A DNA stretch of 64,000 bases from a virus (taxonomy: Duplodnaviria > Heunggongvirae > Uroviricota > Caudoviricetes): IMG/VR virus record IMGVR_UViG_3300037400_004417. One strand, written 5' to 3'. Below are positions 21,374 to 53,789 of this stretch, piece after piece; positions within the stretch are counted from its first letter, which is position 1, and each line of letters starts with the position of its first letter. Made by a program: the position numbers and the translations under genes. Under the pieces are notes generated by a model. It was not told the DNA's origin and searched no databases. It saw nothing but the letters and a program-made list of their open reading frames with translations.

Positions 21374-21816
21374 CATTAATGTTATTTAATTTCATTTATT
21401 TTATAAAAAAATAAAATTAAATTTCCTATATTTAGGACTCTGATTTTCATCAGAAGTTCAGACTATATCTTCATCCTTATAAAAAAGGAGTCGAGCATTT
21501 CGATTTAAAGGACTTTCACCTACCTGATACCAGGCCCTACTCCTATTGGCATTTCAGCCCACAATGGGATAGTCGTTGAACCTTCTCCTTACTCCACAAG
21601 TGAAGGAGCTTGGCTGCTGATCGTCGATTTTTATTTGAATTTTAGGACTATATTTTTTTATAGCTTTTATTTCACCATGATTCATTTTATTGTTTCTTTC
21701 AGTCTTTCGACAACATTCGCACTTATTATTTCTAATTATGCTGTAGTACAATAAACTTTACGATGTCCCAGCAATTAACTCGATTTTTTCCTACACATTA
21801 CTGTATAGGGAGACCC
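21374..21816 (-). ncRNA. group I intron (family A, ORF-less) in the SNF2 helicase gene
   Basis: S cagactatatctt (21460), R gatagtcgttgaacc (21573), gctgctgat (21612) on plus strand; proposed junction DEIN|IQYIKSD with exon end U and intron end G. Confidence 0.55.
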
Positions 21817-24611: not shown

Positions 24612-25760
24612 TTAAGTTTTTACTACGTATTGGGAATTTATCTCCTTGATAAATCGTGAAGGTTTGTTAGGGAACACGCCTCTTTTAGTAAGTACAGTGG
24701 TTGGATAGGTTATAAAAAGATACTTTTCGGCTCTCGTCATTCCGACATAGAATAACCTTCTTTCCTCTGAAATATCTCCAGCCTGTATTGCTTTTATATG
24801 AGGAACAACTTCTTCATTTGCTCCAACTATAATTACAGCTGGAAATTCCAAACCTTTAGATGCATGCATAGTCATTAGATTAACATAATCATCTTCATCT
24901 TGTTCTTCTGTCATCTGGGTATTCATTATAACATTATTAGAAAAGTCAGCTAAATCTACATAATTACATGCTACTTCTCTTAACTCTACTAAATTAGCTA
25001 ACTTTTCAGGAACTAATTCTTCTTCTGCTGTTTCACTAATATAGTCCTCATAATGAACCATATTAATGATCTCTTTAACTATGTCTTCAGGACTATTTGC
25101 TAAGCAATATTCGGTTAAAGTTTCAATTACAGCGATAAATCTGTTCAAATTTTCTCTTGTTGTCTTTGTTACCTTCACATTTTTACAAGCGGATAATAAT
25201 CCCCCGTTGTCTATTGTACCATGTTCATCAGCATATGTAAAGACCTTTTCTAAAGTTTTATCTCCAATTCCTCTCTTTGGAACGTTGATAATACGTCTTA
25301 ATGCTTCTGAATCATTAGGGTTTAATAGAAATCTGACATATGCCATAATATCTTTGATTTCTTGTCTCGCATAGAAAGCTAAACCGCCGGTGATTTTATA
25401 AGGAATTCTATTCTTTAACATAGCCTTTTCTATACGCCTAGACAAAAATTGCATTCTGTAAAGTATCGCCATATCTTTATATGCCATACCTTTTTTCTTT
25501 AAAGCTTTAACAATACGTACTACATGGTTTGCTTCATCAGTACTATTAGTCAACGCAGATAACATAATGCTGTTTCCTACTTCATTTTCAGTAAAAACAG
25601 TTTTCTTAATAGGTTCGTCATTGTTCTTAATCATACTGCGAGAAGCATTTACGATAGTTTTTGTGGATCTATAATTTTGTTCTAACATAAATTGTTTAAA
25701 ATTATATGTCTTCATAAAATCATATACGGATCCCATATTTGCGCCTCTGAAACTATATAT
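24612..25760 (-). CDS. UvrD/PcrA-like helicase, exon 3 (motifs IV-VI)
   Basis: IYSFRGA...LEQNYRSTKTI...VGMTRA; in-frame extension upstream of the Met to 25760. Confidence 0.75.
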   Translation of the reverse strand: MYSFRGANMGSVYDFMKTYNFKQFMLEQNYRSTKTIVNASRSMIKNNDEPIKKTVFTENEVGNSIMLSALTNSTDEANHVVRIVKALKKKGMAYKDMAILYRMQFLSRRIEKAMLKNRIPYKITGGLAFYARQEIKDIMAYVRFLLNPNDSEALRRIINVPKRGIGDKTLEKVFTYADEHGTIDNGGLLSACKNVKVTKTTRENLNRFIAVIETLTEYCLANSPEDIVKEIINMVHYEDYISETAEEELVPEKLANLVELREVACNYVDLADFSNNVIMNTQMTEEQDEDDYVNLMTMHASKGLEFPAVIIVGANEEVVPHIKAIQAGDISEERRLFYVGMTRAEKYLFITYPTTVLTKRGVFPNKPSRFIKEINSQYVVKT

Positions 25761-27000
25761 CTTTTTTATTTATTATATATACATTGATAAAAATACATGA
25801 ACATCATAGGTAATACATTTAATAATAAAAAACATCTCAAAGGAGTGTATACCTATGACAGAAAAACAGATATGTAAACAACAACAAATGATTGCGGCAG
25901 CAAATGAGTTTATCAAAGGAGCTAAACCGCAAGAAGTAATGAAAAAATACAATATATGTTATGCTTCCATTTGGAACACAATCAAAAGATATAATCTTCC
26001 TTACAAAAAGACATGGGGAAGAGAAATATTTTTTGATATTGATTTCTTTGAAAAAATTGATACAGAAGCAAAAGCTTATTGGTTAGGATTTATTTTTGCA
26101 GATGGTTCTGTAGTCAAAACAGACAAAAACTTACAAGAATATAATCGAGTATGTGTATCAATATCAGCAAAAGACATTGCCCACCTTCAAAAACTAGAAT
26201 CAATTCTTAATTTTTCTAAACCTAATAGAATCAAAATTTATAAAAAAACTCCAAATGCTTCATTTAAAAGTGAATATGACACTTGTTATCTTCATCTAAA
26301 TTCGATAAAATTATGTTCTGATATCATAAATCATGGTTGCGTTCCACAGAAAACATATGATACTACTCATAATCCACAAAATATCCCAGATCACTTAATA
26401 TGTCATTTTATAAGAGGATATTTCGATGGAGATGGAAGTATTTCTGGAAAACTAAAATCCCCAATGTTCAGTATTACGACATCAAAAAACCATAATGAAT
26501 GGATACAGTCTTATTTAATGCGTTTTTGCAATCTAAACAAGACTAAACTAACTTTTTGTCGCAATGCTTATCAATTAGATTATGGAGGAATAAATCAAAT
26601 TGTTCGTATTTTTCATTATTTATATGATGATGCTACTATTTATCTTGAACGTAAATATAATAAATTTTACTCTTATGTTTCTAATAGAGAACAGACTATC
26701 TCTTCATCCTTATCTGAAAAAGATAAGGAGCTCGGCACTTCGGCATAGGATTTTCACCACAGCCTACGAGAATCACTTCTCTAGTCGTTACACTCTTATA
26801 ATATTGTATATTATACTAGCACGGTATTTCCAGCTATCCTTTGTTTTGCAAAGGACCTTAGGTTCTCTTACGGAGCGTATTCAATATATTAACTCCTACC
26901 GTTAGCCCTCATTTTTAATAAATAAAACAAGGACACCCTATATTATATAGGTTCACCGAGGATTAATTATTCATTGCTGAATAAAAGAGCAATATAGTTT
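25761..27000 (-). mobile_element. group I intron (family D) in the UvrD-like helicase, with an antisense LAGLIDADG HEG
   Basis: exon 2 ends ...DADQS (AGT, U) at 27001; intron ends in G at 25761; exon 3 resumes IYSFRGA; core 26790-26940 is homologous to nrdD intron 2. Confidence 0.65.
25855..26748 (+). CDS. double-motif LAGLIDADG homing endonuclease, on the strand opposite to its host intron
   Basis: YWLGFIFADGSV and FIRGYFDGDGSIS; own RBS aaaggagtg. Confidence 0.8.
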   Translation: MTEKQICKQQQMIAAANEFIKGAKPQEVMKKYNICYASIWNTIKRYNLPYKKTWGREIFFDIDFFEKIDTEAKAYWLGFIFADGSVVKTDKNLQEYNRVCVSISAKDIAHLQKLESILNFSKPNRIKIYKKTPNASFKSEYDTCYLHLNSIKLCSDIINHGCVPQKTYDTTHNPQNIPDHLICHFIRGYFDGDGSISGKLKSPMFSITTSKNHNEWIQSYLMRFCNLNKTKLTFCRNAYQLDYGGINQIVRIFHYLYDDATIYLERKYNKFYSYVSNREQTISSSLSEKDKELGTSA

Positions 27001-27645
27001 ACTCTGATCAGCGTCAAGTATCAAACATACATTCATAGACTTACCGCCTAACAATTCAATTAAATGTAAATCTTCAGGGCTGCTATCATGTGCTTCATCA
27101 CAAGTTATATAAGTATATTTATCATTAATAGCTTCTTTTACTTCTGGATAGTTATCTAATAATTCAATAGTATAATAAATCAAGCCATCAAAATCAAAAG
27201 CATTATTTGCTTTCATTCTCTGTGAATACTGTTGATAAATTCTTGCGAGTGATTCAAAATATCTTCCAGAAGCTCCTAATAAAGCCTCTGAAGGACTAAC
27301 TAGATTCATTCTCCAATGAGAAATCATCTGCGAAGCATTTTGTGGTTCTACTGCAGGAATAGTCTTCTTGCATAATTCTTTTAAAAGTTTCTTTTTATCA
27401 TCTTCATCATAAATAGAATAATTTCTTGTCCAACCGATTTTATCCGCATATAATCGAAGAAGCTTTGAGCAGAAACTATGATAAGTACCGACAGTAATGC
27501 CTTTTGATTTAGGTCCAATCTTTTTGTATACTCTTTCCTTTATCTCATTTGCAGCTTTCTTTGTAAAGGTAAACAGTAAAATATTCTTAGGAGAAATTCC
27601 ATCTTCAATCATTAAAGTAGTTCTAGCAATTAGAGTTGCAGTTTT
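27001..27645 (-). CDS. UvrD/PcrA-like helicase, exon 2 (motifs Ia-III)
   Basis: KTATLIARTTLMIEDGISPKNILLFTFTKKAANE...GTYHSFCSKLLR...DADQS. Confidence 0.75.
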
Positions 27646-27977
27646 CCAATTGTTATTAACCTACGGCTTTTTATCCGTAGCTCTGGAGGTTATCCTCATT
27701 TTCATCGGTTAGTCTTTTCTAACCCAGTGTAGCGTACCTTTTGCATATAGCTTCTATATTTAATATAGAAGTAAAACTGTAAATATGGACCGGCCTCTTG
27801 GGAACATTATATCTTTTCAGTTCCTACGCGTTGCTCCTCATCTTACTTTGCAAGATGTTCGGTTCTGATTAGGTTTATAACCCTTCCAGCTTAATTCCGG
27901 CCTAATAATTCAGAAACTTCATACAGTCTTTGTTTCTGAACGGCAATATTTAATGTAATTCATTACATTACACAATT
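27646..27977 (-). ncRNA. group I intron (family B, ORF-less) inside the Walker A codons of the UvrD-like helicase
   Basis: exon 1 ends GPGSG (GGT) and exon 2 starts AAA ACT (KT); intron ends G at 27646; family-B core motifs at 27670-27700, 27775-27830, 27860-27900. Confidence 0.65.
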
Positions 27978-28105
27978 ACCACTACCTGGTCCCGCGTTTA
28001 CTGCACAAGGACCGTAATACTCTAATGCTGCTTGCTTTTGCTGGTTATTTAATGGAGCCAGCACCTTCTCCTTTATATTTTTAAATTCTACATTTGTTTC
28101 TGCCA
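27978..28105 (-). CDS. UvrD/PcrA-like helicase, exon 1
   Basis: MAETNVEFKNIKEKVLAPLNNQQKQAALEYYGPCAVNAGPGSG. Confidence 0.6.
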
Positions 28106-28144
28106 TAATAAAACATTAACCTTCTTCCTATGGTTACGATACCA

Positions 28145-28342
28145 TTAAATATTTAGATACTGTAAAGGATTATCGTCAGAAGCGTTGCGACTTTCTTCAT
28201 CTTCCATTTCTCCATTGATAACCTGAGCCAATGCTTCGGTAGTTGTTCTACATCCATATTGATCATAACCAGTTGCTTCAAATTCAAAAGTTCCATCGTT
28301 ATCGATAACAATCTTTATTCTTTTCTGTGCCATTTTTATCAC
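28145..28342 (-). CDS. hypothetical protein
   Basis: 65-aa ORF. Confidence 0.3.
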   Translation of the reverse strand: MIKMAQKRIKIVIDNDGTFEFEATGYDQYGCRTTTEALAQVINGEMEDEESRNASDDNPLQYLNI

Positions 28343-28408
28343 TCCTATATCTATTAATGAGAATAAGAAGGGGTGAACAAATAAGTCACCCCCTATATCT
28401 TTACTATT

Positions 28409-28807
28409 TTAACCGGCGTATGCTTCTATAATAATCTGTCCATTGTCATTCTTCTGACAAGACTCAATAGTCATACCTAATCCAAACTCTAACTGGTAAG
28501 TCAAACTATGCTTAGCATATTCTTGACTAAGAGTACCGATAAAAGTCCTTTCATCTAACCCAGTCTTCCAGAAATCTCCTTCAACGGTAAGAGAACCGTC
28601 TTTATCGCGAAACTTAAAGCCTAAAGTTAATGGCTCACCATCTTTAACGAGACCGGCATCTACAGTAATTGCGCGGTTCTCCCAAGCAGAACTTACATAC
28701 TTAATGGACTCATCAAAATCAAATTCCATATCCTGACAAGCCTTATGTAACATGTCGATATCTACGTTTTTAAGCACATTAGCGGTGTATTTTCTCCAAC
28801 AACTCAT
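28409..28807 (-). CDS. hypothetical protein
   Basis: 132-aa ORF. Confidence 0.4.
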   Translation of the reverse strand: MSCWRKYTANVLKNVDIDMLHKACQDMEFDFDESIKYVSSAWENRAITVDAGLVKDGEPLTLGFKFRDKDGSLTVEGDFWKTGLDERTFIGTLSQEYAKHSLTYQLEFGLGMTIESCQKNDNGQIIIEAYAG

Positions 28808-28850
28808 TTAAATCAATTCCTTTCTTTTCATATGTAATTTACATTCTATA

Positions 28851-29432
28851 TTATAAAGAGAATATATTTCCGAATCCTTTTTCTACATTTGTCTTAAATG
28901 ATTCTTTAGAAATATCATTCTTTTTATCTGGAATAATATCCGTATTTCTTGCTCTACCTATACTCCAATTCTGCAAAGCAATAATCTTTTCCTTAGAGGA
29001 TATAGATATAGGAATAACTTCACTGATGGCTTCAGACATTATAGCTTCCGAAAAAACATCTGATTTTATCTTTGTATCTTTATATCTAAGAAAATCTTTA
29101 CGTAAGCAAGTATATATAACTTCTTTAATCTCAGCACCAGTATATCCATCTGTCTTAGATACAATATAATCTAACGTTGCCTTGTCAGAAGATTTGTTAA
29201 TCTTCTTTAGATATATAGAAGCTATTTCTCTTCTTTCTTCTTTCTTTGGAAGATCAAAGAACCATTGAGCATCTATACGACCAGATCTCGTAAATTCAGG
29301 AGGTAACATAGTTATATCATTAGAAGTCATTATAACAAATACTCCATTATCATTATCTTGCATGAACTTTAAGAAGCTGGCCATTATTCTATTTCCAACA
29401 CCTCCATCGGTTCGAGCTGAGGCAGCAGTATT
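28851..29432 (-). CDS. classical AAA ATPase, exon 2 (second-region-of-homology and lid)
   Basis: ...TDGGVGNRIMASFLKFMQDNDNGVFVIMTSNDITMLPPEFTRSGRIDAQWFFDLP; frame open upstream of the Met. Confidence 0.6.
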   Translation of the reverse strand, partial: NTAASARTDGGVGNRIMASFLKFMQDNDNGVFVIMTSNDITMLPPEFTRSGRIDAQWFFDLPKKEERREIASIYLKKINKSSDKATLDYIVSKTDGYTGAEIKEVIYTCLRKDFLRYKDTKIKSDVFSEAIMSEAISEVIPISISSKEKIIALQNWSIGRARNTDIIPDKKNDISKESFKTNVEKGFGNIFSL

Positions 29433-29724
29433 CTAGATATTTTTATCCTATAGTTTTTTATCTATAGCTCTGGAGGTCGCCCTCATTTTCATCGGATGAT
29501 CAATACATCCCAGCATAGCATATCTTTTTATGTAGTTCTATATTGATTATAGAAATAGTACTGTAAACATAGAACGGTCTCTTGGTGAGATTATATCTTT
29601 TCACTCACTATGCGTTGCCCCTGACTTATCTTAAATAAGCCTTCGGTTCTGATTAGGTTTATAACCCTCCCAGCTTAATACCATTCTAATCATCGAGATT
29701 CTTCATACAGTCATTGAATCTCGA
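29433..29724 (-). ncRNA. group I intron (family B, ORF-less) in the AAA ATPase gene
   Basis: family-B motifs tctatagctctggaggtcgccctcattttcatcgg (29460), ggtctcttggtgagattatatcttttca (29575), cttcggttctgattaggtttataaccc (29640); boundaries approximate. Confidence 0.55.
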
Positions 29725-30808
29725 CGGCAAAAAATTCACCATTAATTGCTTTCTCTATCTCATCTACTAACAAGACACATGGAGCACATTTTCTTACGAT
29801 ATTTAAAGCTTGTTCTATTTTCTGTTCTGATTCTCCGACTAACTTAGACATAATCTTTGCAGGATTAAAAGATATAAACGGCATATTCATCATACCTGCA
29901 AATGCTTCTGCAATAGCTGTCTTAGCACATCCAGCTACACCCGTAAATACTGCACCTTTTGGGGCGGGTATATTAAACTCTCTAGCTTCTTCGCTAAAGA
30001 ATTCTTTTTCTTCGTATAACCATTTCTTAATGGCTCTATTCCCGCCAATGTCTTCCAAGGTCGTTTCAGGAATCTTATAATCTAATAAGCCACTCTTCTT
30101 GATAATTTGAATCTTGCTGTTAAGAAGGTGTTTAGGAGATATAGTATTTTCTTTAGTGAAAGATTCAGCAAGCGCCATACTAGCCTCTCGATAAGTGATA
30201 CCGCTAAGGGCTTTAACAGCTTCATCAATAATTTCTTCAGTAACGGATACATAATTGTTATTTCCTTTTTCTATATAGTATTTTAGCTTATCGTTGACCG
30301 CGCAAACTAATTTTCTAATATCTTCTTCTTCTGGATAGCCATAATCTACTACTCTAAAGAATCTGGAAATAGATTCTGGTATGTTTACGGTACCTGACGT
30401 ACAAATTACGATATTTGTTCCTTCACATCTATTTCCTTCATTTATTTCCTTGAAATATGAAGGAATCTTATCCATAGTCAAAAAATCATTAAAGTCTTTT
30501 AGTATAAATATATTGTTTGATGGCTCCTGATTACCTCGAAGTCCAATAATATCACTAATATGTTCTAAGATTGCCATAGGTTCTCTTAGTTTTAAATTAG
30601 GAGCTTCTTTATTGGATTCATCAAAGAAAGTTTCTACTCTTAATAATCCTCCTGAATTGCTCCAAGAATATAAATTAAATTCGCGACATTTATCAGAAAC
30701 CAACTCTGTCATGTCTTCAATAAATTCTTTTGATTCGAAAGTCGTTACCCAAATACAAGGCAAGCCTATATTTATTAAATTTTCAATTTCATTTAAACTT
30801 TGTCTCAT
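29725..30808 (-). CDS. classical AAA ATPase, exon 1 (N-domain, Walker A/B)
   Basis: GVAGCAKTAIAEA Walker A, LLVDEIEKA Walker B. Confidence 0.65.
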
Positions 30809-30824
30809 TTTATAAAAAACTCCT

Positions 30825-31709
30825 CTAGAATCGTAATCCAGAAAACAAGTCTGTTTTCTTTTCTTTTTTTTTATGTGTAATAAGACTATTTACATTTTCA
30901 TAATAATCTTTAAGATCTTTATATTCATCTTTAAATTTGTATTTAGAGAAAGTTTCTAGTAAGTTGGCCGCTTCTAAATTTTTTATTAAAACAATATGTG
31001 ACGTTAAAATATTAATAGAATAATCTTTGTCTTTTTGTCCTTTTATTGTTTTTATTGTGGTTCTTCGCGGACTAAAGCTAAAACTAAGTTGATAAATATC
31101 ATCACTATCTTTATCTTGAATAAAGATATATACACCTTTAAATGTTTTATCTTGAATGCTTATTGCAAGATCTGCACAATAAGTTGTAATCATAGGAATA
31201 TTATCATAATCATTCATCTTAACATAATAAAAAGTAAGATTTTCAAAGAAATTATCTATAATATATTCACCATTATCATCTATGTAGGCGATAATACCTT
31301 TTAGCTTATAAACTTTATCTCTAAGAGCTTTGCTATTTTGCAATAGATTTTTATATGCATATATGTCAAGAATTCTCTGTTTAGCTTCTTTCACAAATGG
31401 AAAATCAGTTACATTTAAACTATTGTTATTGATGGCATCAGCTATCATCGACATTCCAAAATGATGTTCATCGAATTGAATATTAGCTGTGACATACATA
31501 TTGTATACATTGTTTAAATATCCGCGAATTTCTACTTCTTTTGATTCTTCGACAGGAATAACTGAATAATTTATTTCTACTGATTTAATTCTTGGATCTT
31601 TTAAGTCAATAAATTCTGCATAATCATTTTGAATTTTAATCTTCTCCAATTCATTTCTATGAAATTCTATATCAGGATTTTTGTGTTTAGCTAAAATATC
31701 ATCTATCAT
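30825..31709 (-). CDS. hypothetical protein
   Basis: 294-aa ORF, start overlaps the radical-SAM gene by 11 nt. Confidence 0.4.
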   Translation of the reverse strand: MIDDILAKHKNPDIEFHRNELEKIKIQNDYAEFIDLKDPRIKSVEINYSVIPVEESKEVEIRGYLNNVYNMYVTANIQFDEHHFGMSMIADAINNNSLNVTDFPFVKEAKQRILDIYAYKNLLQNSKALRDKVYKLKGIIAYIDDNGEYIIDNFFENLTFYYVKMNDYDNIPMITTYCADLAISIQDKTFKGVYIFIQDKDSDDIYQLSFSFSPRRTTIKTIKGQKDKDYSINILTSHIVLIKNLEAANLLETFSKYKFKDEYKDLKDYYENVNSLITHKKKEKKTDLFSGLRF

Positions 31710-32364
31710 TCAAAATCCACTCCACCCTACTTTCTTTTTCTGTATCTTTAACGATATAAATTAGTTCATTATCGTAATTGACGGCTATTCCTTCTAAATC
31801 TCTGGCACTATATCCATGATTATTATGCATATTCCAAATAACTTGGTTGCCAGATCCTACTGCATTATGAAAACCATCATTATATTCTTCTTCATTATAG
31901 ATATGTTCTTCTTTAACGTATTCTCCGTCTATTAAAATATCTATATTGTTAAGTATACTAGCTAAATCATAATTTAAATTAAAATCCTTAATAGAACCTA
32001 TCCACTTTAAAATTTCATATTTAGTATAATGAGTAAATAATATAATATGAAAACTTTTAGACTTTAGGCCTCTACACAATTCAGCTAAAGCTTCTGGCTG
32101 ATCAAAAGGTTCGCCGCCAACTATTGTCACATATTTAATTTTAGATACTTCGTTAATATGGTCTACAACTTCAGATACTTCAATTTCTTTAGCATATTCA
32201 TCAGAATGCCATAACCCGGGGTTAAAACAACCACTACAAGGATTACCTGTAGCTGCTTTTTTACATCCACGCATAAATATTTCTACTCTTTGATTCCCCT
32301 CGAGGGGAGAAGGACCAGCAGTAGTACTGGTCCATTTAACATCATAAATCTTAATCTTAGACAT
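31699..32364 (-). CDS. radical-SAM activase-like protein (NrdG/QueE-type) with atypical Cx8Cx2C cluster motif
   Basis: FMRGCKKAATGNPCSGCFNP and VTIVGGEPFDQPEALAEL. Confidence 0.5.
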   Translation of the reverse strand: MSKIKIYDVKWTSTTAGPSPLEGNQRVEIFMRGCKKAATGNPCSGCFNPGLWHSDEYAKEIEVSEVVDHINEVSKIKYVTIVGGEPFDQPEALAELCRGLKSKSFHIILFTHYTKYEILKWIGSIKDFNLNYDLASILNNIDILIDGEYVKEEHIYNEEEYNDGFHNAVGSGNQVIWNMHNNHGYSARDLEGIAVNYDNELIYIVKDTEKESRVEWILNDR

Positions 32365-32396
32365 ATAATGTTCCCTTTCTTGATTGTTTGTTTAAA

Positions 32397-33110
32397 TTAT
32401 TCGGATACAGTTGATTCGTTGACTTCTAATTGTTCCTTTAAATAATTTACGAAATCTGTTAATTCTTTCGGCAATAAATCGTTTACGTCAGTATATGTGT
32501 CAGAAGACCATTCGGATACTATTTCGCTTAATTCTTTTCTAGAAACTGTATTATCAGTAATCAGCTTCTTAATATAATCAAATTCATGCTGGTGTTCATT
32601 TAGAATTTCATCAGTCCATGGATCTTCATAACATAGATTTTCGAAATATTCCTGTTCATCTTCATCTCGATATAACTGAGCGCCAATACCTAACAAAGAA
32701 GCAGCTTTCTTTAATGCATCGGTAGAAGCAGATTTAAATATATCTTTCTGCTCATTTTGTCCGCCAATAACTGGTTTTGCTCCAGCAGCTTGCTTTTTAA
32801 TAGATATTATATTATCATTTTCGTCTTTCATATATATGGTAAGTGTACCGATAACATGAGCAACTGGTCCCTGTGGTTTAGGTTCTTTGTCATACTTAGG
32901 ATTAAACTTATCTTCAGAAGTCTCTTTCCAACAATGATCAATAGTCCAATCCCAATTATAGTTAGTAAGCTTATTTAAGATATCGATAACCATACATCCT
33001 GAAATATACTTTAAATCTCCCTGTCCTGGTTTCTGTTTGATTAAGTTAGCGGGAATTTCTGCACTTATTAAATCAGTAAACTCTTTCTGGATTTCAATTT
33101 TCTTTAACAT
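32397..33110 (-). CDS. Rad52/Sak-like single-strand annealing protein
   Basis: KPGQGDLKYISGCMVIDILNKLTNYNWDW and ASTDALKKAASLLGIGAQLY match Rad52-family signatures. Confidence 0.5.
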   Translation of the reverse strand: MLKKIEIQKEFTDLISAEIPANLIKQKPGQGDLKYISGCMVIDILNKLTNYNWDWTIDHCWKETSEDKFNPKYDKEPKPQGPVAHVIGTLTIYMKDENDNIISIKKQAAGAKPVIGGQNEQKDIFKSASTDALKKAASLLGIGAQLYRDEDEQEYFENLCYEDPWTDEILNEHQHEFDYIKKLITDNTVSRKELSEIVSEWSSDTYTDVNDLLPKELTDFVNYLKEQLEVNESTVSE

Positions 33111-33377
33111 AAAATAAACAAACTCCTCTCTAAAAGTCGTGATATATAATAAAACTATAATGATAAACTAATTATTGCTATTACTATCTTCTAAGAAATC
33201 TAAGATTTCTTTATCGGACATAACGTTTCTTTTCAACTCCATAGTAAAACAAACATTGGATACTGGACATTCGGTATTACATTCTTTTCCATTACAAATA
33301 ATCATAAAAATTTTACCTCAAAAGATAATATTAAGAGATAGCCATATTGACCATCTCTTAATATATTAAATTATAAA

Positions 33378-33650
33378 CTAATCATTAAGTTCAGATGGCA
33401 ACCTCCATCTTACAGCATTGCCATGTTGAAGCCAATTTCTAAAATACATTCTGAGATTCTTTTCATTAATAGAAGAATATGGAGGAACAGGTGTTTCGTA
33501 AGCTTTTTCATTTAGCTGATTAATAACGAAAAAAGTGCTTGATCCTCTTTCTTTCTTGATGGTCGCTTTAAAAGTTCCTTCCGTTAATAAGAATCCGGCT
33601 GTAATATGCCATTTATCTCGTTCTAAAAGCATAATGTTAAGCTTAGACAT
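33378..33650 (-). CDS. hypothetical protein
   Basis: 90-aa ORF. Confidence 0.4.
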   Translation of the reverse strand: MSKLNIMLLERDKWHITAGFLLTEGTFKATIKKERGSSTFFVINQLNEKAYETPVPPYSSINEKNLRMYFRNWLQHGNAVRWRLPSELND

Positions 33651-33654
33651 AATG

Positions 33655-34767
33655 TTACACCGCCCCGTAATTAAGTTTTTCTTCTAACTTCATACTGCTA
33701 GACATAGTAATACAAAGATCAGACATAAACTTAATACGTGCACGAATATCGACTAAGAATTCATAACGACAACGAGTTGCGGCAACAAGATAAGAAAGAT
33801 TAAACTTTTCACCCATATAAGTTGCGTTAGTTAAAGCTCTCTGGGCATTAGTCTTTCTTTCTGCGTCATTCTTACCAATACTTGAGGTCTTACGAATAGT
33901 AGAGCATAAACCATCTTCCTTATCAGTTAAAGCTTCAAGCAAACCACGCATATTAGCTAATGGCACTGCAATCATACCATATAAATCATTTAACTGAGTC
34001 AAGAGAATCTTCATCATGCCTGGATTCATATCCGGAGCAATCTTAATTTCACGAAGCTGATCAGTTACTTCCTGCTTAAACTTCTTCCAATCATCATCTT
34101 CCAAGGAAGAAAGAATCTTGGCGGCGTGTTCATTATAATTTACGCCGACGCCCATTAACTCATCAACATTAACTGGTTCGTTATTAACAGGAGTGATAAC
34201 TTCCTCATTTTTTTCTGTATTAGAATCTTCGCCATCATTATTAACAGGAACAGTGTCACTTTCAGTTGAAGGAATTTCTACAGTTTCGGTCTTCTTAGCT
34301 GCTTCTTCGGCGGCACGAGCGGCTTCCATTTCTGCACGAGTACGACGCTTACGCTTAGCAGGCTTAGGCTTTTCTTCATCTTCTTCCTTCTGCGCTTCAA
34401 TTTCATTAGCGACTTCTGCCTTAGCTTCGTTCACTAAATCTTCTACACTCTGTTCAGAAGTATCTTCTACTGCTTCCTTTTTATCTTCAACGACTGATTC
34501 AGCTTTAATATTTTCTGTTGAAGTATTATTTACTTCTGCATCTTTATTCTCCTCAATCTTTTCTTCAATATCTGTAATTTCTTCGGCAACTGGAACAGAC
34601 TGTTCTGCTCCCTTCTTCTTCCTTGCCAATAAAGACTTAAAACTTGGCTTAGGGGCAGCGGTTTCCTTCGCCTCTGGTTCTGATGTTTTATTTTCAACGT
34701 TAACTTCATTCTTTTTAGCAGCTTCATCAGCAGCACGACGTGCCTTAATCTTATCTAAAAAACTCAT
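33655..34767 (-). CDS. acidic low-complexity protein
   Basis: 370 aa rich in E/K/A/V/N. Confidence 0.4.
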   Translation of the reverse strand: MSFLDKIKARRAADEAAKKNEVNVENKTSEPEAKETAAPKPSFKSLLARKKKGAEQSVPVAEEITDIEEKIEENKDAEVNNTSTENIKAESVVEDKKEAVEDTSEQSVEDLVNEAKAEVANEIEAQKEEDEEKPKPAKRKRRTRAEMEAARAAEEAAKKTETVEIPSTESDTVPVNNDGEDSNTEKNEEVITPVNNEPVNVDELMGVGVNYNEHAAKILSSLEDDDWKKFKQEVTDQLREIKIAPDMNPGMMKILLTQLNDLYGMIAVPLANMRGLLEALTDKEDGLCSTIRKTSSIGKNDAERKTNAQRALTNATYMGEKFNLSYLVAATRCRYEFLVDIRARIKFMSDLCITMSSSMKLEEKLNYGAV

Positions 34768-34812
34768 AATTTATTTTCTCCTTTTTACTTATCTACTTAC
34801 TTACTTTTTTTA

Positions 34813-35526
34813 CTATAAAATGACATCACTATCTGGATAATCTTCTTTTGCTTTTATAAACACAGAAGCAATATCTTTAAAGAAATCCTCTTTATAATCG
34901 CCGGCAAAATCATCTTGAATACTTTCTAACTGTTTTATAGTACTAGGAGCATAAGTGGCCATTGCCTGAATATTATCTCTAATATAGAACCATTTGCCAT
35001 GCTCTTTATCTATAGTTGTGTTTTTCTTAAATACATTCAAGGCAATATTTCCAATAACTATAATATAGAGAGGTTTAAAAGCATCTATAGCATAATCTAT
35101 ATAACATTTGCAGTTATTGATTTCAGAACTACTAGGTGCTCTTCTTAATGTTTCTTTGCCTATCTTTTTGTGAGTAAAACAATTGACGACATTCATCCAT
35201 ATGATTTGTTCTTTGTTAGCATTGCATTTATCTAAAGCTTCATTAATTAAATTGCCTTCTTCTGTATTCTCATAAGGATATACATAATCTTTATCTGACT
35301 GAGATTCGATTACGTGTTCTCCTATAATCATAATGGCCCCATGAGGATTACCAGAAACTAAACTTTTAGTACCTTCAGAGCATTCTTCGCAATAGTCACA
35401 CGTTCGTATAAAGTTATTTAATGTATCTTTAGCTAGTTCTTCAACAGCATAGTCAACATAATGTATAGGATCTGGAGGTCCTACATTTTTAACGAGTTCG
35501 ACTATCTGCTTCTGAACATCATCCAT
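34813..35526 (-). CDS. uracil-DNA glycosylase, family 4-like
   Basis: N-terminal Cys cluster CDYCEEC, GNPHGAIMIIGEHV, VVNCF, ATYAPS match family-4 UDG motifs. Confidence 0.5.
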   Translation of the reverse strand: MDDVQKQIVELVKNVGPPDPIHYVDYAVEELAKDTLNNFIRTCDYCEECSEGTKSLVSGNPHGAIMIIGEHVIESQSDKDYVYPYENTEEGNLINEALDKCNANKEQIIWMNVVNCFTHKKIGKETLRRAPSSSEINNCKCYIDYAIDAFKPLYIIVIGNIALNVFKKNTTIDKEHGKWFYIRDNIQAMATYAPSTIKQLESIQDDFAGDYKEDFFKDIASVFIKAKEDYPDSDVIL

Positions 35527-35652
35527 ACAATCACCTACTTTCCTTATCTTTTATTATTATAAAACAAACAACAGAATACTATAGCTACAGCAAAATATTC
35601 TAGAACAGTTGCTAAATTGTCACCGATTTCAATCATGAGGCAACACCCTCTC

Positions 35653-35991
35653 TTAATTAAGTAAGCCTTGCTTATGAATAATTGGCAACATCTTTGCAGC
35701 TTTTACATCATTCATATCATGTGTCCACTTCTTCCATTCTTCCATAATAAGTTCTTTATTCTTTTTTCCAATATGTCCAATAAAATGATACCATTCAGGA
35801 TGCTCAGTATTTACGTTAATAATAAAATTCTTTCTAGATTCTAATGGTTTTAATGTCTTTATAAAACCTGTATCTTTATCTATCTCATATACTAAAGCTA
35901 CTTGAAAATTAATTGGAGAAATGTATAATACTATATCTCCGATTCTATAATTAAATTCTTTAACTTTCTTATTTTTACTCATTGAATTCAC
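35653..35991 (-). CDS. hypothetical protein
   Basis: 112-aa ORF. Confidence 0.4.
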   Translation of the reverse strand: MNSMSKNKKVKEFNYRIGDIVLYISPINFQVALVYEIDKDTGFIKTLKPLESRKNFIINVNTEHPEWYHFIGHIGKKNKELIMEEWKKWTHDMNDVKAAKMLPIIHKQGLLN

Positions 35992-36660
35992 CTATAAGGT
36001 ATGTTGGAAAATATCTTTTCCACATTTTTCTTCTAGTATTTTCTTTTCTGCTTTTAACAGTTCATTTTCGGCTTTTAATTTTATTAAATTTGCTTCTACT
36101 AATTCTCTTCTTTTTATTTCTAAATTAATTCTGTTATTTGCTGATTTAGCTATTCTCCTATCTTCTATCATGGTTTTAACCATAGACATAATAACATCTT
36201 GATCTACGACAATAAATACTTCATCGTCTGTTTCCTGAAAACTAAATTTTAAATACCAGAATTCCATTTCTTCTCTAGGAGCTTCTCTAGCCAATTTGTC
36301 TAGCCATTCTTTTTTTATCGTAAAAGTCTTTTTACCTGGGGCTTGTTCTTTTACCTTTGTTTTAAGTTCTTCCATTATTCGAATAATGCCGACAATCTGT
36401 TCATCACCTTTTTGTTTATTTGTTGCTCCACTATTAAGAGTCATAGAAGTTTGAACAGTATCATTCATGGCTGCTACATTGGCTTTATGATTTTTATATT
36501 CGAAATTACTTCCCTGTCTTTTATCTGCTTTTTGTGCTACTTTAGCCAGTCCAAACTTTTTTTGTTGAACTGGCTTATAGCACTGAGTAGAGTTAAAACA
36601 GAGATCACATTTTATACCTTCAAATTTGCAATCGGTATAACCCCATTCACAACTACTCAC
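35992..36660 (-). CDS. hypothetical protein (Cys-rich N-terminus, coiled-coil C-terminus)
   Basis: 222-aa ORF. Confidence 0.4.
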   Translation of the reverse strand: MSSCEWGYTDCKFEGIKCDLCFNSTQCYKPVQQKKFGLAKVAQKADKRQGSNFEYKNHKANVAAMNDTVQTSMTLNSGATNKQKGDEQIVGIIRIMEELKTKVKEQAPGKKTFTIKKEWLDKLAREAPREEMEFWYLKFSFQETDDEVFIVVDQDVIMSMVKTMIEDRRIAKSANNRINLEIKRRELVEANLIKLKAENELLKAEKKILEEKCGKDIFQHTL

Positions 36661-36691
36661 AATAGGTCTTCCTTATATTTTGATTATGTGA

Positions 36692-37747
36692 TTAATTATC
36701 ATCTGCAGAAATAACATCTTCTGCTGCAATAGCTGCGGCCAAATCTTCTGCTTCTGATACTTCTTCCACCGGCGTAACTTCTCTAATAGAGGAATGAGAT
36801 TTCTTGCTGGACCGCTTAGTTTTCTTTTCAGCCTGTTCAATAAGTTCATCTAATGCCTCCTCTTCTGCTTTTATTTCCTCAATTTCTTCAGAAGATAATT
36901 CGCTACCACCATAGACAAGATTGGTCAAAGCTTCAAACTTATCAGGATTATTCCTCATATCTTCTCTGAATGCAACTTTACCATTCCATTTATCTACTTC
37001 TTCGCCGTCACTATTGTACTGGCGAATCCATGCACCTTTCATTTCAAGTATGCCTTTTTCTATGCCAGAATTAAGAGCAGAGAAAATAGTCTCTACGCCT
37101 TCTCCAAATAAAGCATAGTATTCAAGTTTTGTATAGGCAAACTTTTCAGGACGAACATGGTTCTTCTTAATAGTTACGCCTATCTTTACGCCTTCTTCTT
37201 TTGTAATTGGTTCTCCGGGGCCAATACTTTTCTTTCTCAAATCTAAAGTAAGATGAGACCAGTGCTTGATTGCTTGACCGCCTTTAAGGACTAATGGATC
37301 TTTAGACATGGTTCCTATATTGGTGGATAAATGACCAATTAAAATAAAGGCTGTCTCGAATTCAGCAATTAAGGCATTAAACTTGCGGTAAATGCGACTA
37401 TTTAACCGGGCCTGAACTGCTACTGTCGCTCCTTCGAAAGATGCTTCTGCCTCCTGACTAGGTAAAATCGCAGATAAAGAATTAATACATACTAAATCAA
37501 TAGCACCTTCTGAACCTTTCATTACTTCATAAAGAGTATCTAAGATTTTTTCAGCTGGCATACTAGAATCAATTGGTATATAATAAAATCTATCTGGATC
37601 TATATGGAATGTATCACAAACATATTCTTTCGTTAAAGAATTTTCAGCCTCTACCCAAGTCGCAATAAAAGACTCTCCTCCTGGAGCATTCATCGCTTTT
37701 CCGATAGATTCTAATACAAGTGAAGTTTTCTTTTGTACCCTTGTTTT
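36692..37747 (-). CDS. recA: RecA recombinase, exon 2
   Basis: KTRVQKKTSLVLESIGKAM...IDLVCINSLSAILP...GATVAVQARLNSRIYRKFNALIAEFETAFILIGHLSTNIGTMSKDPLVLKGGQAIKHWSHLTLDLRK. Confidence 0.8.
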   Translation of the reverse strand, partial: KTRVQKKTSLVLESIGKAMNAPGGESFIATWVEAENSLTKEYVCDTFHIDPDRFYYIPIDSSMPAEKILDTLYEVMKGSEGAIDLVCINSLSAILPSQEAEASFEGATVAVQARLNSRIYRKFNALIAEFETAFILIGHLSTNIGTMSKDPLVLKGGQAIKHWSHLTLDLRKKSIGPGEPITKEEGVKIGVTIKKNHVRPEKFAYTKLEYYALFGEGVETIFSALNSGIEKGILEMKGAWIRQYNSDGEEVDKWNGKVAFREDMRNNPDKFEALTNLVYGGSELSSEEIEEIKAEEEALDELIEQAEKKTKRSSKKSHSSIREVTPVEEVSEAEDLAAAIAAEDVISADDN

Positions 37748-38113
37748 CACAATATTTATATTAGGGAATAGACTATATCTTTACCATATCTTATAGTTAA
37801 TATAAGACTTAGGCACTCTGCACTTCCATTTAAGGGATTCTCACCCATCCTGTAAACGCAGGACCGTACTCTTGTAGCTGATTTTCACAGCCCCTCGCGG
37901 GAGATAGTCGTTGAACCCTTTTTATGTATCCATAAAATTAGGAAGCTGATTGTCTTATGATAATGCATATATCACTTAGATTTTCCAGCATTTCACAGAG
38001 TTTCTTACCTTATTATTTCTAACAAGGATGGCTTCTATTTAAATAATAAAATTTTTTTCTTTTTTTAATAAATTGTTTGTTCTAAATTTTTATGCAATAT
38101 TTAAATAGATTTT
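37748..38113 (-). ncRNA. group I intron (family A, ORF-less) inside the recA Walker A codons
   Basis: exon 1 ends IEDSG (GGT, U), intron ends G at 37748, exon 2 starts AAA ACA (KT); S aatagactatatcttt (37775), R gagatagtcgttgaaccc (37900). Confidence 0.7.
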
Positions 38114-38374
38114 ACCACTATCTTCAATACCTGTAATAATAGAACATCTTCTTCTTGGAAAGCCTCCGCTTACTTTACCGCTAATAGCCTTATTTAAATC
38201 TGGGCAAGCGGTAGGAATATACTTAATAGAAAGTTTTTCTTCAATTTCAGGGTTCTTACCGATTCGCCCCATTATAGTCTTACCGAATTTCTTATTGACC
38301 TTGTCAGTGATTTTATCTAATAACAACATCTTTTCAGCCAAAGTCTTTTGTTTAATAGGTTCTAAACTTGCCAT
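38114..38374 (-). CDS. recA: RecA recombinase, exon 1
   Basis: KKFGKTIMGRIGKNPEIEEKLSIKYIPTACPDLNKAISGKVSGGFPRRRCSIITGIEDSG. Confidence 0.75.
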
Positions 38375-41106: not shown

Positions 41107-42237
41107 CATTTTGTTAATCGTTAAGTTTTTTATCTTAACTCTATATCTTGCGATACAGATCAGCATATATTTTTACGTATTTTTATCATTACTTCAAACG
41201 TAATCCGGTCTCTTGGTAGAATTATATCTTTTCATCTACTATGCGTTGCCCCTGAATATACTTAGTATATCCTTCGGTTCGCGTTTTCCTTGTTCAGGAT
41301 TTTCACGTTTAATACCAGATTAATAATCTAATTTCTTCATGAAGTTTTTGAAACTAGACGGCAAAAATTTAAATATCTATTGTATTTTCTGTCTAAATAA
41401 ATAGTAGCATCAGAATACATAAAATTTAATGCTTTTAAGATTTCTTGTTTTGCTGATATTCTGTATATGTATACATTTTTTCTAAATTTTACTTTGTAAG
41501 TAGTTTTTACACCAGCTAAACGTTCAAAGATATCTTTTATGTATTCCAATATATCTTTCCCCATGCCAAAACCTATTTCTCTATAATTATAGCCATAAGT
41601 TATCCATCCATCTCCATCAAAAATACCCCTTATATAATGATGAATAAGGTGTTCTGGAATTTGTTTTGCTGGCCTTTCGTTTAAAGTTTTAACACTGGAA
41701 AATCCTAAATTTATCAGGGCTTGATGTAAATGTTTATTAGTAATAGTTAATGTACTAACTAAAGCGGTATCACTATATCCACCACTTTTTCTGATTTCAA
41801 TCGGATGTTCAGATTCAATCGATTTTTTAAACTTTTCAACATGATTATGATCTGAATGCATAAGACTTAATCTAATTCCATTGCTCGATTTAAAAATACA
41901 ACCATCTGCGGTTAATAAACCAAGCCAATATGCTTTTTCTTCAGTGTCTATTACATCAAAGTAATTTTCATTTACATCATATATTCCCCGGATTTCATAT
42001 CTATTGTATTCTTTTAAATATTTGGCTAAAGTATCTCTTGATACTCCTAAATCTTTAGCACATTGGGTAATGCTTAGATCTTTATGTTGAGAAAAGTAAT
42101 TTACTGCATCTTCCCAAAATTTTTCGAGCATTTTTTGTTTGTTTAACATTTAAGAACACTTCTTTCTGTGGAAATAGTATACTTAAATTATTACCAAACA
42201 GCTTTAATGCTTTATACATAGATGTTTAAATTTGTTT
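41107..42237 (-). mobile_element. group I intron, gyrA intron 2 (family B-like core), carrying a LAGLIDADG HEG
   Basis: micro-exon ends ...QGNHG (GGT, U) at 42238; intron ends G at 41107; family-B motifs ccggtctcttggtagaattatatcttttca (41205) and ccttcggttcgcg (41270). Confidence 0.6.
41337..42149 (-). CDS. double-motif LAGLIDADG homing endonuclease with N-terminal HTH
   Basis: YWLGLLTADGCIF and YIRGIFDGDGWI. Confidence 0.8.
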   Translation of the reverse strand: MLNKQKMLEKFWEDAVNYFSQHKDLSITQCAKDLGVSRDTLAKYLKEYNRYEIRGIYDVNENYFDVIDTEEKAYWLGLLTADGCIFKSSNGIRLSLMHSDHNHVEKFKKSIESEHPIEIRKSGGYSDTALVSTLTITNKHLHQALINLGFSSVKTLNERPAKQIPEHLIHHYIRGIFDGDGWITYGYNYREIGFGMGKDILEYIKDIFERLAGVKTTYKVKFRKNVYIYRISAKQEILKALNFMYSDATIYLDRKYNRYLNFCRLVSKTS

Positions 42238-42333
42238 ACCATGGTTTCCCTGCATATCTACTAATGGATATCTTTGTTTAAAATCCTGAGACATATTTAC
42301 CATTGCTTCATATACTGATTGATCTCCATGAGG
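42238..42333 (-). CDS. gyrA: gyrA micro-exon (32 codons: [32 protein letters not shown])
   Basis: supplies the conserved PHGDSAVYD..RY.LVDGQGNFG block missing between the flanking exons; absent from the ORF track. Confidence 0.65.
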
Positions 42334-42635
42334 CAATTATATTACAAATATAATCTGACTATATCATCATCTTTGTTTTATACCAAAGAGCTAGGCGCTT
42401 CATGACAAGGAAATTCACCTTATTCATTACACTCTTATTTGAGTTAGTCGATTGACCTACTATTATATATAATAGATTGGCACAGGATAAAGCTAATTCA
42501 ACTGTCCCCTGTTAGCACTATCATTATATGTCATTTCCTACATACACAATTAATCGTTGATAGCACACCTTACATAATTATAAGTTCACCTAGTTTTCAT
42601 TATGATTCTCATCATAATGCCACCCGATTTCACAA
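42334..42635 (-). ncRNA. group I intron, gyrA intron 1 (family C, ORF-less)
   Basis: exon 1 ends ...GRYH (CAT, U) at 42636; intron ends G at 42334; S ctgactatatca (42357), R tagtcgattgac (42440); about 85% similar to nrdD intron 1. Confidence 0.65.
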
Positions 42636-42866
42636 ATGGTATCGCCCGAGGCATTCACCTACTGTTCTTGCACTCTTTTTATATGAAGTATTAGCATGTA
42701 GTCCTAATCCATTTAAAGACTGAAGTATTCTTCTCTGCACTGGTTTTAAACCATCTTCTGCAGCTGGAATGGCTCTTCCTTCAATTACGTCTTTTGCATA
42801 CAATAAATAATTCGTATACATATGTTCCGCAAAAGAAACTTCTTCTATATTTTTAACTTCGTTCAT
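42636..42866 (-). CDS. gyrA: DNA gyrase subunit A, exon 1
   Basis: [11 protein letters not shown]...[15 protein letters not shown]. Confidence 0.75.
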
Positions 42867-42884
42867 GGTCGTATTTCCTCTCTA

Positions 42885-43556: not shown

Positions 43557-43632
43557 TCTGTATTAAATTATATTATATATACAGATTGTATATCCATAAC
43601 TTAATACAGATATACAATCTGTTTGTCGTATA

Positions 43633-43797
43633 TCATAAATTTTGAAGAATATATTCTCTTCTTGCTTCTACATTATTACTCATACAAATTTCTAAAGCAT
43701 TTGCGGCGCTTTCACAATCATCTATCGTGATTCTCTTTAATCTGGCAATTTCAGGATTCATGGTTGTCTCCCAAAGCTGTTCAGGATTCATTTCTCC
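43633..43797 (-). CDS. gyrB: DNA gyrase subunit B, exon 4 (C-terminus)
   Basis: minus-strand translation (L)GEMNPEQLWETTMNPEIARLKRITIDD...; no ATG, so absent from the ORF track. Confidence 0.7.
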   Translation of the reverse strand, partial: GEMNPEQLWETTMNPEIARLKRITIDDCESAANALEICMSNNVEARREYILQNL

Positions 43798-44058
43798 TAC
43801 ATGTTTTTTCTTATGTTACCATAAGCACTGACTATTTCTTCGTTGAATATTTCAACGTTATCTTTTTCCCAATGCGTATCAATAGCATCAGTACTTCCCG
43901 ACAAAGGGAATAGTCGATACAGGATTAAGTATTTTTTACTTTTTCCCACGAGACATTCCTAAAAATATTTAGGACGGCCCTCGTTAGCTATATTAATGGT
44001 AATTATTAATATAACCCCGCTGATAAACGGAAAAGATAATAAGGGCTCGGATTCTCTA
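43798..44058 (-). ncRNA. group I intron, gyrB intron 3 (short, ORF-less)
   Basis: exon 3 ends KG + T (U), intron ends G at 43798; together these restore RYKGLGEMNPEQLW; R/S-like ggaatagtcgatac and cactgactatttc. Confidence 0.55.
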
Positions 44059-46646: not shown

Positions 46647-46902
46647 CATTTATGTTCGATTAAGGTCGCTAATCTTAATCCGTTCTCCTACGAACTGCTT
46701 TATGTTTCCATAAAGATCAGACTATATCTTTTTCGATTTTTCTTGAAAGTTTCTGTTTCCATTCGCTTGAATGTACGGCTTATTGCCTAGTCGTTGAACT
46801 CTATTATATAATATCAGCTGCTGATTGTCCTTATATTATAATATAAGGGGATTCCAGCATTTAAGAAACTTTTACAACGGCATATTTTTTTTATGCGGTT
46901 TT
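46647..46902 (-). ncRNA. group I intron, gyrB intron 1 (family A, ORF-less)
   Basis: exon 1 ends ...SGLNG (GGT, U) at 46903; intron ends G at 46647; exon 2 starts VGISCVNA, restoring GLNGVGISCVNA; S cagactatatcttt (46715), R gcctagtcgttgaac (46790), gctgctgattgtcc (46817). Confidence 0.7.
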
Positions 46903-51442: not shown

Positions 51443-51507
51443 TAAAAAACTTAAGTATTAGGCATAAAGGGATAGAACTTTTCGTTCACCCCCTATCCAC
51501 ATGTAAA

Positions 51508-53762: not shown

Positions 53763-53789
53763 TCCTCTCTTTTATTATTTATGTAAAAT

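Follow-up and report, generated by a model that had tools for sequence, protein, structure and literature searches.

The recA gene and a UvrD-like helicase gene in a 64,000-nucleotide (nt) stretch of a Caudoviricetes virus (IMG/VR record IMGVR_UViG_3300037400_004417; hereafter the window) are each interrupted at the identical point of their Walker A motif, in phase 0 between the Gly and Lys codons (GGT|AAA, the vertical bar marking the splice junction), by what appears to be a self-splicing group I intron. We consider it probable that these are two independently acquired mobile introns which converged on one Walker A position that fits both the ribozyme and a homing endonuclease. Each intron follows a U and ends in G, and its removal in silico restores an intact GxxxxGK[TS] P-loop in a reading frame colinear with intron-less homologues, which argues for splicing. 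An initial annotation of this DNA had noticed the shared insertion point and is partly confirmed: the insertion point in both genes and the extent of the helicase intron stand, whereas the 3' boundary of the recA intron and the description of the two introns as unrelated do not.

The helicase intron, here called B1, spans positions 27646-27977 on the minus strand (332 nt, terminal G at 27646, no open reading frame [ORF]), exactly as first annotated. Exon 1 (27978-28106) ends GGA CCA GGT AGT GGT (GPGSG; 5' exon end GGTAGTGGT|) and exon 2 (27001-27645) starts AAA ACT GCA ACT (KTAT; 3' exon start |AAAACTGCA), giving the predicted ligated junction ...GGUAGUGGU-AAAACUGCA. The product spliced in silico, ...NAGPGSG|KTATLIARTT..., aligns colinearly and gap-free with L001, L008 and L013, homologues that lack an interruption; the first of these reads AGPGSGKTKTVISR at the site. 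Residues 12-45 and 46-258 of the L008 helicase fall on either side of B1 in a tblastn search, the latter delimiting exon 2, and the Pfam UvrD-helicase model matches the spliced product across the junction. A second intervening sequence of 1240 nt (25761-27000), located at DQS|IYSFRGA, precedes exon 3 (24612-25760), and the helicase joined from all three exons has 640 amino acids (aa) against 641-643 aa in its homologues. This second insertion carries a 297-aa LAGLIDADG ORF on the strand opposite to the helicase (25855-26748, plus), so that any ribozyme would have to fit into about 250 nt on the 5' side and about 94 nt on the 3' side; the 3' strand of P7 was not recognised within those last 94 nt.

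In recA, exon 1 (38114-38374, minus strand; 87 codons delimited by the ORF list and by tblastn of residues 1-87 of the intron-less L006 RecA) ends ATT GAA GAT AGT GGT (IEDSG) within Walker A, and the gene is interrupted past GATAGTGGT| at 38114/38113. The initial annotation had the intron at 37748-38113 with the junction IEDSG|KTRVQ(KKTSLV); its 3' end actually lies 18 nt farther downstream, at 37730. The corrected intron, here called A, is 384 nt long (37730-38113), exon 2 (36692-37729) starts AAA ACT TCA CTT GTA (KTSLV), and the junction becomes GAT AGT GGT|AAA ACT TCA, that is IEDSG|KTSLV, with the predicted ligated sequence ...GAUAGUGGU-AAAACUUCA. Five observations support this 3' end. Twelve aligned uninterrupted RecA homologues read DSGKTS(L/I/F)(V/I/A/L)LE across the site and none has the six-residue insert KTRVQK (a thirteenth aligned RecA, P0012, is itself an intron-split exon-2 fragment), and tblastn of the L006 RecA picks up again at 37729. 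The terminal stem of the intron, CCCU/AGGG, is kept in the orthologous intron of L012 and spans the 3' site first annotated (GUG|AAAACAAGG), and the L012 equivalent of that upstream site would give DSGKG, which is no P-loop. Finally, and decisively, the near-identical relative L255 has CAATAG where the window has CAAAAG, which would place an in-frame stop in the protein if the 18 nt were exon, while the terminal G is kept. The Pfam RecA model matches the product spliced in silico.

The last 18 nt of intron A (37730-37747) are in frame with exon 2 and start AAAAC as the true exon does (G|AAAACAAGGGTACAAAAG|AAAACT), which creates a decoy 3' splice site and leads gene callers to start the protein at the GTG at 37750, and the RecA call is a 352-aa protein whose start residues are intron-encoded. 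The end of the intron, GGGUA(C)AAAAG, resembles the ligated junction GGU-AAAAC. The counterpart of these 18 nt in L012 lies around 10016-10033.

Searched alone, intron A matches Rfam model RF00028 at 64.1 bits (gathering score 50; E 3.6e-16), a match which the speed filters of the 64-kb and 12-kb scans had missed. Its core is of IA2 type, GUUCAACGACUA...AAGAUAUAGUC, it contains no ORF, and comparison with the L012 orthologue finds 15 predicted pairs that change on both sides and stay paired. In the centroid fold the internal guide sequence (IGS) 5'-GCCAU-3' (38028-38032, minus strand) pairs with the exon end GUGGU, placing a U.G wobble at the splice site, and an AT-rich hairpin of about 80 nt (38034-38109) separates the 5' splice site from the IGS. 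The position of this hairpin is taken by a LAGLIDADG gene in L012, where the IGS GCCC(C) faces the exon sequence CGGGU with a compensatory U-A to G-C change at -4. The upstream element AUAUUGCAU, which resembles the IGS context of the helicase-type introns, was considered as an alternative IGS and rejected, as only two exon bases would pair with it and in L012 the endonuclease gene parts it from the core. Two other classes of element were also rejected. An intein is incompatible with the lack of an ORF continuous with both exteins, in-frame stops occurring 7 codons past the recA junction and 4 past the helicase junction. A group II intron is contradicted by the absence of any group II family over the Rfam gathering threshold in the window and by elements of only 332 and 384 nt without an ORF; group II introns have a domain V/VI and usually measure about 0.6-2.5 kb with a reverse transcriptase ORF.

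The helicase intron escapes Rfam: RF00028 gave no match at E<=10 even when run against the isolated 356-nt segment, and there was no Rfam match at all. Its minimum free energy z-score of -4.4 and comparative evidence nonetheless point to a group I fold comprising P2, P3 enclosing P4-P5(-P6), P7 pseudoknotted with P3, P7.1, P8 and a three-way P9 domain. On the minus strand of B1 these elements are the IGS GCCGUU (27939-27944), P3 (27897-27902 with 27788-27793), P7 (27825-27829 with 27732-27736), P7.1 (27801-27824), P8 (27751-27771) and the P9 domain (27661-27727). Three paralogous introns occur in the window on the same strand, and we refer to the group as family B: B2 in the AAA+ ATPase gene (29433-29737; immediately past Walker B, AAT GGT|AAT ACT; 77% identical to B1 by blastn), B3 in clpX (49875-50262; pore-loop G|FVG, CTGGGT|TTGTAGG, phase 1) and B4 in gyrA (41107-42237; CAT GGT|AAT TTA, GNHG|NLDGD), the last with a LAGLIDADG ORF (41337-42149) in its P1 loop. 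Across five members, namely window paralogues and the B1 orthologue of L011, the structure comprises 53 pairs in 9 helices with 96.8% of cells paired, a figure somewhat favoured by the structure having been drawn by eye from one member before pairs were counted. Compensatory changes support 33 of the 53 pairs, including two in P7 and three in P3, and P7 covaries as GCGUA/UACGC, GCAUA/UAUGC and GAGUA/UACUC. Sliding the partners by 1-3 columns reduces pairing to 32-45%, and none of 500 shuffles reaches the real value. The IGS is GCCGU(C/U) at the four mapped sites (helicase, AAA+, clpX and gyrA); in B1 it pairs with the exon sequence AGUGGU|, and the U at -1 and the terminal G recur in L011, L124, L116 and others.

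Introns A and B1 were initially described as unrelated, which holds insofar as they belong to different lineages: blastn finds no similarity between them and their P7 strands differ (ACGACUA/UAGUC in A, GCGUA/UACGC in B). It fails insofar as both are group I introns; A and B are two lineages of one ribozyme class.

Once the recA exon is corrected, an unbroken run of 13 bases, TAGTGGT|AAAACT, is identical between the two sites. Guide complementarity is present on the GGU side of both (GCCAU/GUGGU in A, GCCGUU/AGUGGU in B) and lacking on the AAA side, where neither intron offers a convincing P10, so recognition at the RNA level would be limited to the GGU side. Under uniform insertion the two introns would coincide about once in 10^3. 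The spliced helicase, however, offers 15 GGT, 3 TGGT and 1 GTGGT candidate sites, and recA 19 GGT, and a restriction to GGT makes the coincidence within this single genome only modestly improbable; it is the recurrence in other genes and phages, described below, that lifts it above chance. The window also holds a negative control, the Walker A motif of clpX (50339-50356, minus strand; GGC TCT GGT AAA ACT TTA, GGCTCTGGTAAAACTTTA), which has the same GGTAAAACT yet no intron.

The preference for GGT extends beyond the two P-loops. Using tblastn with proteins of the intron-less relatives L006 and L008 we mapped introns over 24.6-50.8 kb, and found ten within about 26 kb (24612-50809), all missing from these two syntenic relatives and all sitting in highly conserved motifs. 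One is in clpX (pore loop G|FVG), three are in gyrB (GLNG|VG, DAD|VDG, and YKGLG with the splice within the last Gly codon), two in gyrA (H|PHGD and GNHG|NLDGD), one in recA (Walker A G|K), one in the AAA+ gene (immediately past Walker B) and two in the helicase (Walker A G|K and motif III DQS|IY). The 5' exon ends in GGT in 7 of the 10, against a background of 3.6% calculated as the T positions in these genes with GG directly before them (binomial P = 8e-9), and the IGS of all seven starts GCC.

Family B is widespread. Its 21-base signature, UGAAAAGAUAUAAU-N3-5-CCAMGAG, occurs at >=120 IMG/VR loci (L015-L134), many of them in tape-measure and terminase genes. We screened 130 B-like hits for a Walker A motif split at G|K and checked the candidates by eye and with Pfam, retaining those whose intron length was plausible, whose 3' end was of B type and whose junction was covered by a Pfam match. 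A loose Walker A regular expression returned many false positives, such as uninterrupted GGGKTS and tape-measure proteins, and automatic splice calling by IGS complementarity and ORF continuity proved unreliable on the 130 hits (distant spurious 5' sites, and the window intron itself miscalled) and was dropped. The cases kept comprise an independent UvrD-like helicase (L124, AGAGSG|KTSTIV, 344 nt), DnaB-like helicases (L021, SAGTGTG|KTRQS, 1126 nt with a LAGLIDADG gene; and L116 and L118, SAATGVG|KSRTG, 231 nt, with a perfect 6-bp P1 GUCGGU/GCCGAC), a terminase-like gene (L114, ATRGIG|KTYLVA, 319 nt) and an AAA+ ATPase orthologous to that of the window (L126, SVPGTG|KSLICKAIAKEF, 1094 nt with a LAGLIDADG gene). 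All have GGT| followed by AAA, and Pfam matches cross each junction formed in silico, that of the L114 terminase being below threshold (E = 0.0028). L026 and L074 are probable further P-loop cases, the latter DnaB-like as judged from its 3' exon only. The remaining B-like hits fall into some 35-40 site classes, mostly in tape-measure, terminase and capsid-like genes. The Walker A Gly-Lys junction is thus a repeated insertion point of group I introns, occupied in five or six families of ATPases at least, which supports the initial suggestion that the P-loop coding sequence is a recurrent target of mobile introns. An alignment of cores, weak evidence in that 58 of 130 cores were kept and identities were 70-80%, does not place the P-loop introns as mutual nearest relatives.

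Mobility is indicated by a sister lineage represented by L003/L005 (JGI 3300045988), L011 (ERZ1314445) and L012 (SRR23947417), whose RecA is 61% identical to that of the window. L005, L011 and L012 have both introns at the same sites as the window (recA junction GATTCGGGT|AAAACCAGT, helicase junction GGTGCTGGT|AAAACCGCA), and the recA intron of L012 and L003 encodes a 307-aa double-motif LAGLIDADG protein (LLFADG, YFDGDG); a helicase intron version with an endonuclease was not found. In L013, whose RecA falls within the same 90%-identity cluster as the sister lineage, both sites are empty (GATTCCGGCAAGACTTCA and GGATCAGGAAAAACGGCC; empty recA site sequence CCAGATTCCGGCAAGACTTCAATCGTA). The recA genes of L012 and L013 are about 99% identical over 1.2 kb except for a cluster of 10 synonymous differences at -4 to +21 of the site, which includes GGT versus GGC, the change that provides the splice-site U. 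Between L011 and L013 the 5' exon of the helicase has likewise diverged strongly. Homing driven by an endonuclease and accompanied by short co-conversion tracts would be expected to leave such a pattern. Homing and reverse splicing had both been named initially as possible routes; the LAGLIDADG genes within P-loop introns, the occupied and empty alleles and the co-conversion-like cluster in recA favour homing. The P1 loops of the introns in recA (L012), DnaB (L021), AAA+ (L126) and gyrA (window) house LAGLIDADG genes that are paralogous to one another, and the proteins of the P-loop introns are 28-36% identical, no closer to each other than to the paralogues in gyrA, gyrB, helicase motif III and terminase introns.

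We favour convergence over direct copying: the P-loop introns are not mutual nearest relatives and their endonucleases are only 28-36% identical. Under this proposal the introns would have spread at the DNA level, the endonuclease cutting the empty allele and repair copying the occupied one, and the window copies would later have lost the endonuclease gene and persisted as splice-only introns. A U is permitted at the third position of the invariant Gly codon and would supply the obligatory U.G wobble beside two G-C pairs; in an AT-rich genome such pairing with GGU would make P1 strong. Protein function would fix the flanking GG and AA and the first two bases of the Thr/Ser codon, so that an endonuclease would always have a target which the host could not easily mutate away. 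Since Lys codons provide no U for position -1, GGU|AAR would be the sole suitable position in the invariant Gly-Lys dipeptide. There are published precedents: homing endonucleases are directed at the codons of functionally critical residues (PMC3984707), inteins have a hotspot in the P-loop of ATPases that are not orthologous (PMC4760082), and different introns adapt to one homing site (PMC2504315).

Several points weigh against this proposal. The window copies of A and B1 have no ORF, and hence no endonuclease gene, so that any present-day mobility here would be conjectural, and both the exact junctions and splicing itself are deduced from homology and modelled structure. The cluster of differences flanking the recA site may have arisen not by co-conversion but by selection for P1 pairing, or because the empty allele acquired mutations that resist the endonuclease. 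P-loops account for roughly 10-15% of the 35-40 site classes, an approximate share from a semi-manual census in which 29 of the 130 B-like hits lacked a recognisable 3' motif, and the assignment of L114 as a terminase is weak. Among 120 IA2-type loci found with a pattern derived from intron A, the 75 with a readable 3' exon included no P-loop other than recA (the other 45 lacked the P7 motif used), so a P-loop preference is not universal to group I introns.

A broader version of the proposal, which we put forward tentatively and think rather unlikely, is that GGU|AAR serves as a superfamily-wide landing pad, with introns or LAGLIDADG genes hopping ectopically between non-orthologous ATPase genes (RecA, superfamily 1 and 4 helicases, AAA+, terminase) in addition to allelic homing. 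About eight of nine bases would be fixed in every P-loop NTPase while the ribozyme would need only GGU. If true, P-loops would be to RNA introns what the P-loop hotspot is to inteins, and would offer introns a way to multiply inside a single genome. Such movement might take place at the RNA level: introns with a GCC(R)U IGS would reverse-splice into (R)UGGU transcripts, followed by reverse transcription and recombination, and so pass directly between P-loop genes. As few as 4-6 complementary bases suffice for reverse splicing (PMC3984707), the family B IGS is a near-invariant GCCGU(C/U) at five window genes whose 5' exons end (U/G)GGU, the two Walker A sites have 13 identical bases in common, and the spliced helicase offers only 3 TGGT and 1 GTGGT sites. 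We nevertheless hold this route to be improbable. The recA and helicase introns are different ribozymes, neither copied from the other, and the P-loop introns are not monophyletic; the exon flanks are altered around occupied sites, as DNA-level homing and not reverse splicing predicts; the clpX Walker A UCUGGU|AAAACU is empty; the P10 pairing to the AAA side is missing; and no reverse transcriptase was noticed in the region studied.

Alternatively, one lineage of P-loop-specialist LAGLIDADG enzymes recognising GxGK[TS]-coding DNA could have cross-cleaved non-orthologous genes and seeded introns at the same position. One paralogous family does occupy the P1 loops of recA, DnaB-like and AAA+ P-loop introns, GGT AAA AC/GC is common to the target sites, and many homing endonucleases tolerate target substitutions (PMC3984707), but the three P-loop enzymes show no special affinity to one another relative to the gyrA, gyrB, helicase motif III and terminase paralogues, the targets differ beyond about 8 bases, clpX is uncut and two different ribozyme lineages are involved, and we give this explanation little credence. 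Plain coincidence seems to us equally hard to sustain. It would hold that >=15 introns in 64 kb all prefer GGT in conserved motifs and that the metagenomic cases are a sampling effect; a shared position has a probability of about 1/15 to 1/19 per gene under the GGT rule, at least 10 introns allow many possible comparisons, and most B-like introns lie elsewhere, for example in tape-measure, terminase and capsid-like genes. Against it stand the identical G|K junction in >=6 families (RecA, UvrD, DnaB-like, AAA+, terminase-like and probably L026) on unrelated contigs and with different intron sublineages, and the outcome of the survey, in which no second motif was hit in several genes that are not orthologous.

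The elements belong to a known kind of mobile element, and the recA Walker A site is new. Bacteria of the Bacillus cereus/anthracis group and Bacillus phage 0305phi8-36 (gp241) likewise, within a Firmicute or jumbo-phage lineage, have a recA/UvsX-type recombinase gene with a self-splicing group I intron, whose endonuclease gene is often degenerate or lost (PMC2504315), and the window RecA is homologous to gp241. Comparison with these known recA introns shows a different site from that of the window: gp241 is split about 150 codons downstream of Walker A (exon 1 up to ...NQLRTDVNSRFGD, ...SRFGD; exon 2 from ..TTGGRALAFYAS) and its Walker A, SSGKTSLCLE, is uninterrupted, whereas the window splits the P-loop at GGT|AAA. 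Inteins in the P-loops of DnaB (site b), MCM (site a), RFC-S (site a) and others also bring a selfish splicing element with a homing endonuclease into Walker A of non-orthologous ATPases; they splice at the protein level, need Ser/Thr/Cys at +1 and enter between GK and T/S (PMC4760082), whereas the window elements are RNA introns that need U at -1 and lie one codon earlier (G|K). Different introns at one site are also documented for TMP-IVS3a/3b and term-IVS1 of Bacillus cereus-group prophages, where a single homing site can hold different cores whose P1/IGS is near-identical, and where a changed P1 fits homologous cores to new sites (PMC2504315). Those cases concern one orthologous gene, whereas the site described here is a motif common to a whole superfamily of non-orthologous genes.

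Intron-like sequence with 78-82% identity to the 3' (P9) domain of B occurs in the Bacillus phages AR9/PBS1 (gyrA), Yersinia phage phiR1-37 and a Clostridium phage terminase, the match to AR9/PBS1 and phiR1-37 extending over about 95 nt. AR9/PBS1 and phiR1-37 are likewise intron-rich jumbo phages, although at the blastn level the match covers the 3' domain only, host genes and sites are different, and the P-loop site is not annotated in them. Intron A has the same core as the T4 td/nrdB/nrdD-type IA2 introns (RF00028) and passes the Rfam threshold, differing from them in a long P1 extension that replaces the endonuclease ORF, in its host gene and in an extra terminal stem past the end of the Rfam model.

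Because the introns split the ATP-binding site, gene callers return truncated or duplicated fragments of the proteins concerned, and family B, invisible to RF00028 though present at >=120 IMG/VR loci, represents a sizeable blind spot in Rfam-based intron annotation. Use of the G|K junction parallels the intein hotspot one codon downstream and provides a testable case in which the sites open to selfish introns would be set jointly by the needs of the ribozyme (U at -1, a GC-rich P1) and by the targets that endonucleases choose, as well as a way to ask about intron movement between non-orthologous genes.

The window has a G+C content of 32% and almost all its genes are on the minus strand. Megablast of the studied region against deposited phage genomes found no near relative, and a RecA-seeded protein locus search in IMG/VR found nothing; its genes are nonetheless syntenic with those of metagenomic contigs, of which several reach 200-240 kb. 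The order in common runs ClpP, ClpX, SSB, GyrB, SSB, GyrA, RecA, UDG, a Rad52-like protein, a radical-SAM activase, the AAA+ ATPase and the UvrD-like helicase, with ThyX between the last two in the relatives and elsewhere in the window. The syntenic relatives L006 and L008-L010 are intron-free, with none of these genes split.

Other insertions in these genomes encode endonucleases as well. The second gyrB intron of the window (Toprim DAD|VDG) carries a LAGLIDADG ORF at 44279-45139 on the minus strand that is 60% identical to one at 2728-3567 of L012 in the same gene position, while those found in recA, gyrA, helicase and terminase introns are only 28-42% identical; it looks as if one endonuclease family had radiated over many target sites. 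The gyrB gene of L013 is still split, by an insertion at 3798-4451 whose 217-aa product gives weak hits to HNH_3 and faint ones to AP2 in Pfam, an endonuclease type that differs from the LAGLIDADG genes elsewhere.

An Rfam scan of the whole window at gathering thresholds reports only two introns, 13874-14148 and 46698-46920. Non-coding gaps with group I core motifs (GATATAGTC, TTCAAC, CAACGAC) occur at 2780-3227, 15453-15864, 21376-21797, 42150-42884, 43563-44005, 51458-51853, 53772-54181 and 57253-58397, and such gaps between minus-strand ORFs are probably further introns. An anaerobic ribonucleotide reductase-like gene apparently has two close introns on the minus strand, the Rfam-detected 13874-14148 and 14396-14640, the latter a short variant (about 230 nt) with the family B P7 (GCGUA/UACGC), CCAAGAG and P9 hairpins and a seemingly missing P4-P6 domain. 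A RAGATH-18 RNA motif (55226-55287, minus strand; 66.4 bits, gathering score 44.9) lies inside a 208-nt gap between ORFs. Intron and ORF content varies between very close relatives: over 13791-16863 of L255 the AAA+ gene is split at the same place as in the window by a gap that holds a 357-aa ORF (14938-16011), which the 305-nt B2 intron of the window lacks, and gyrA has one interruption in L255 against two in the window.

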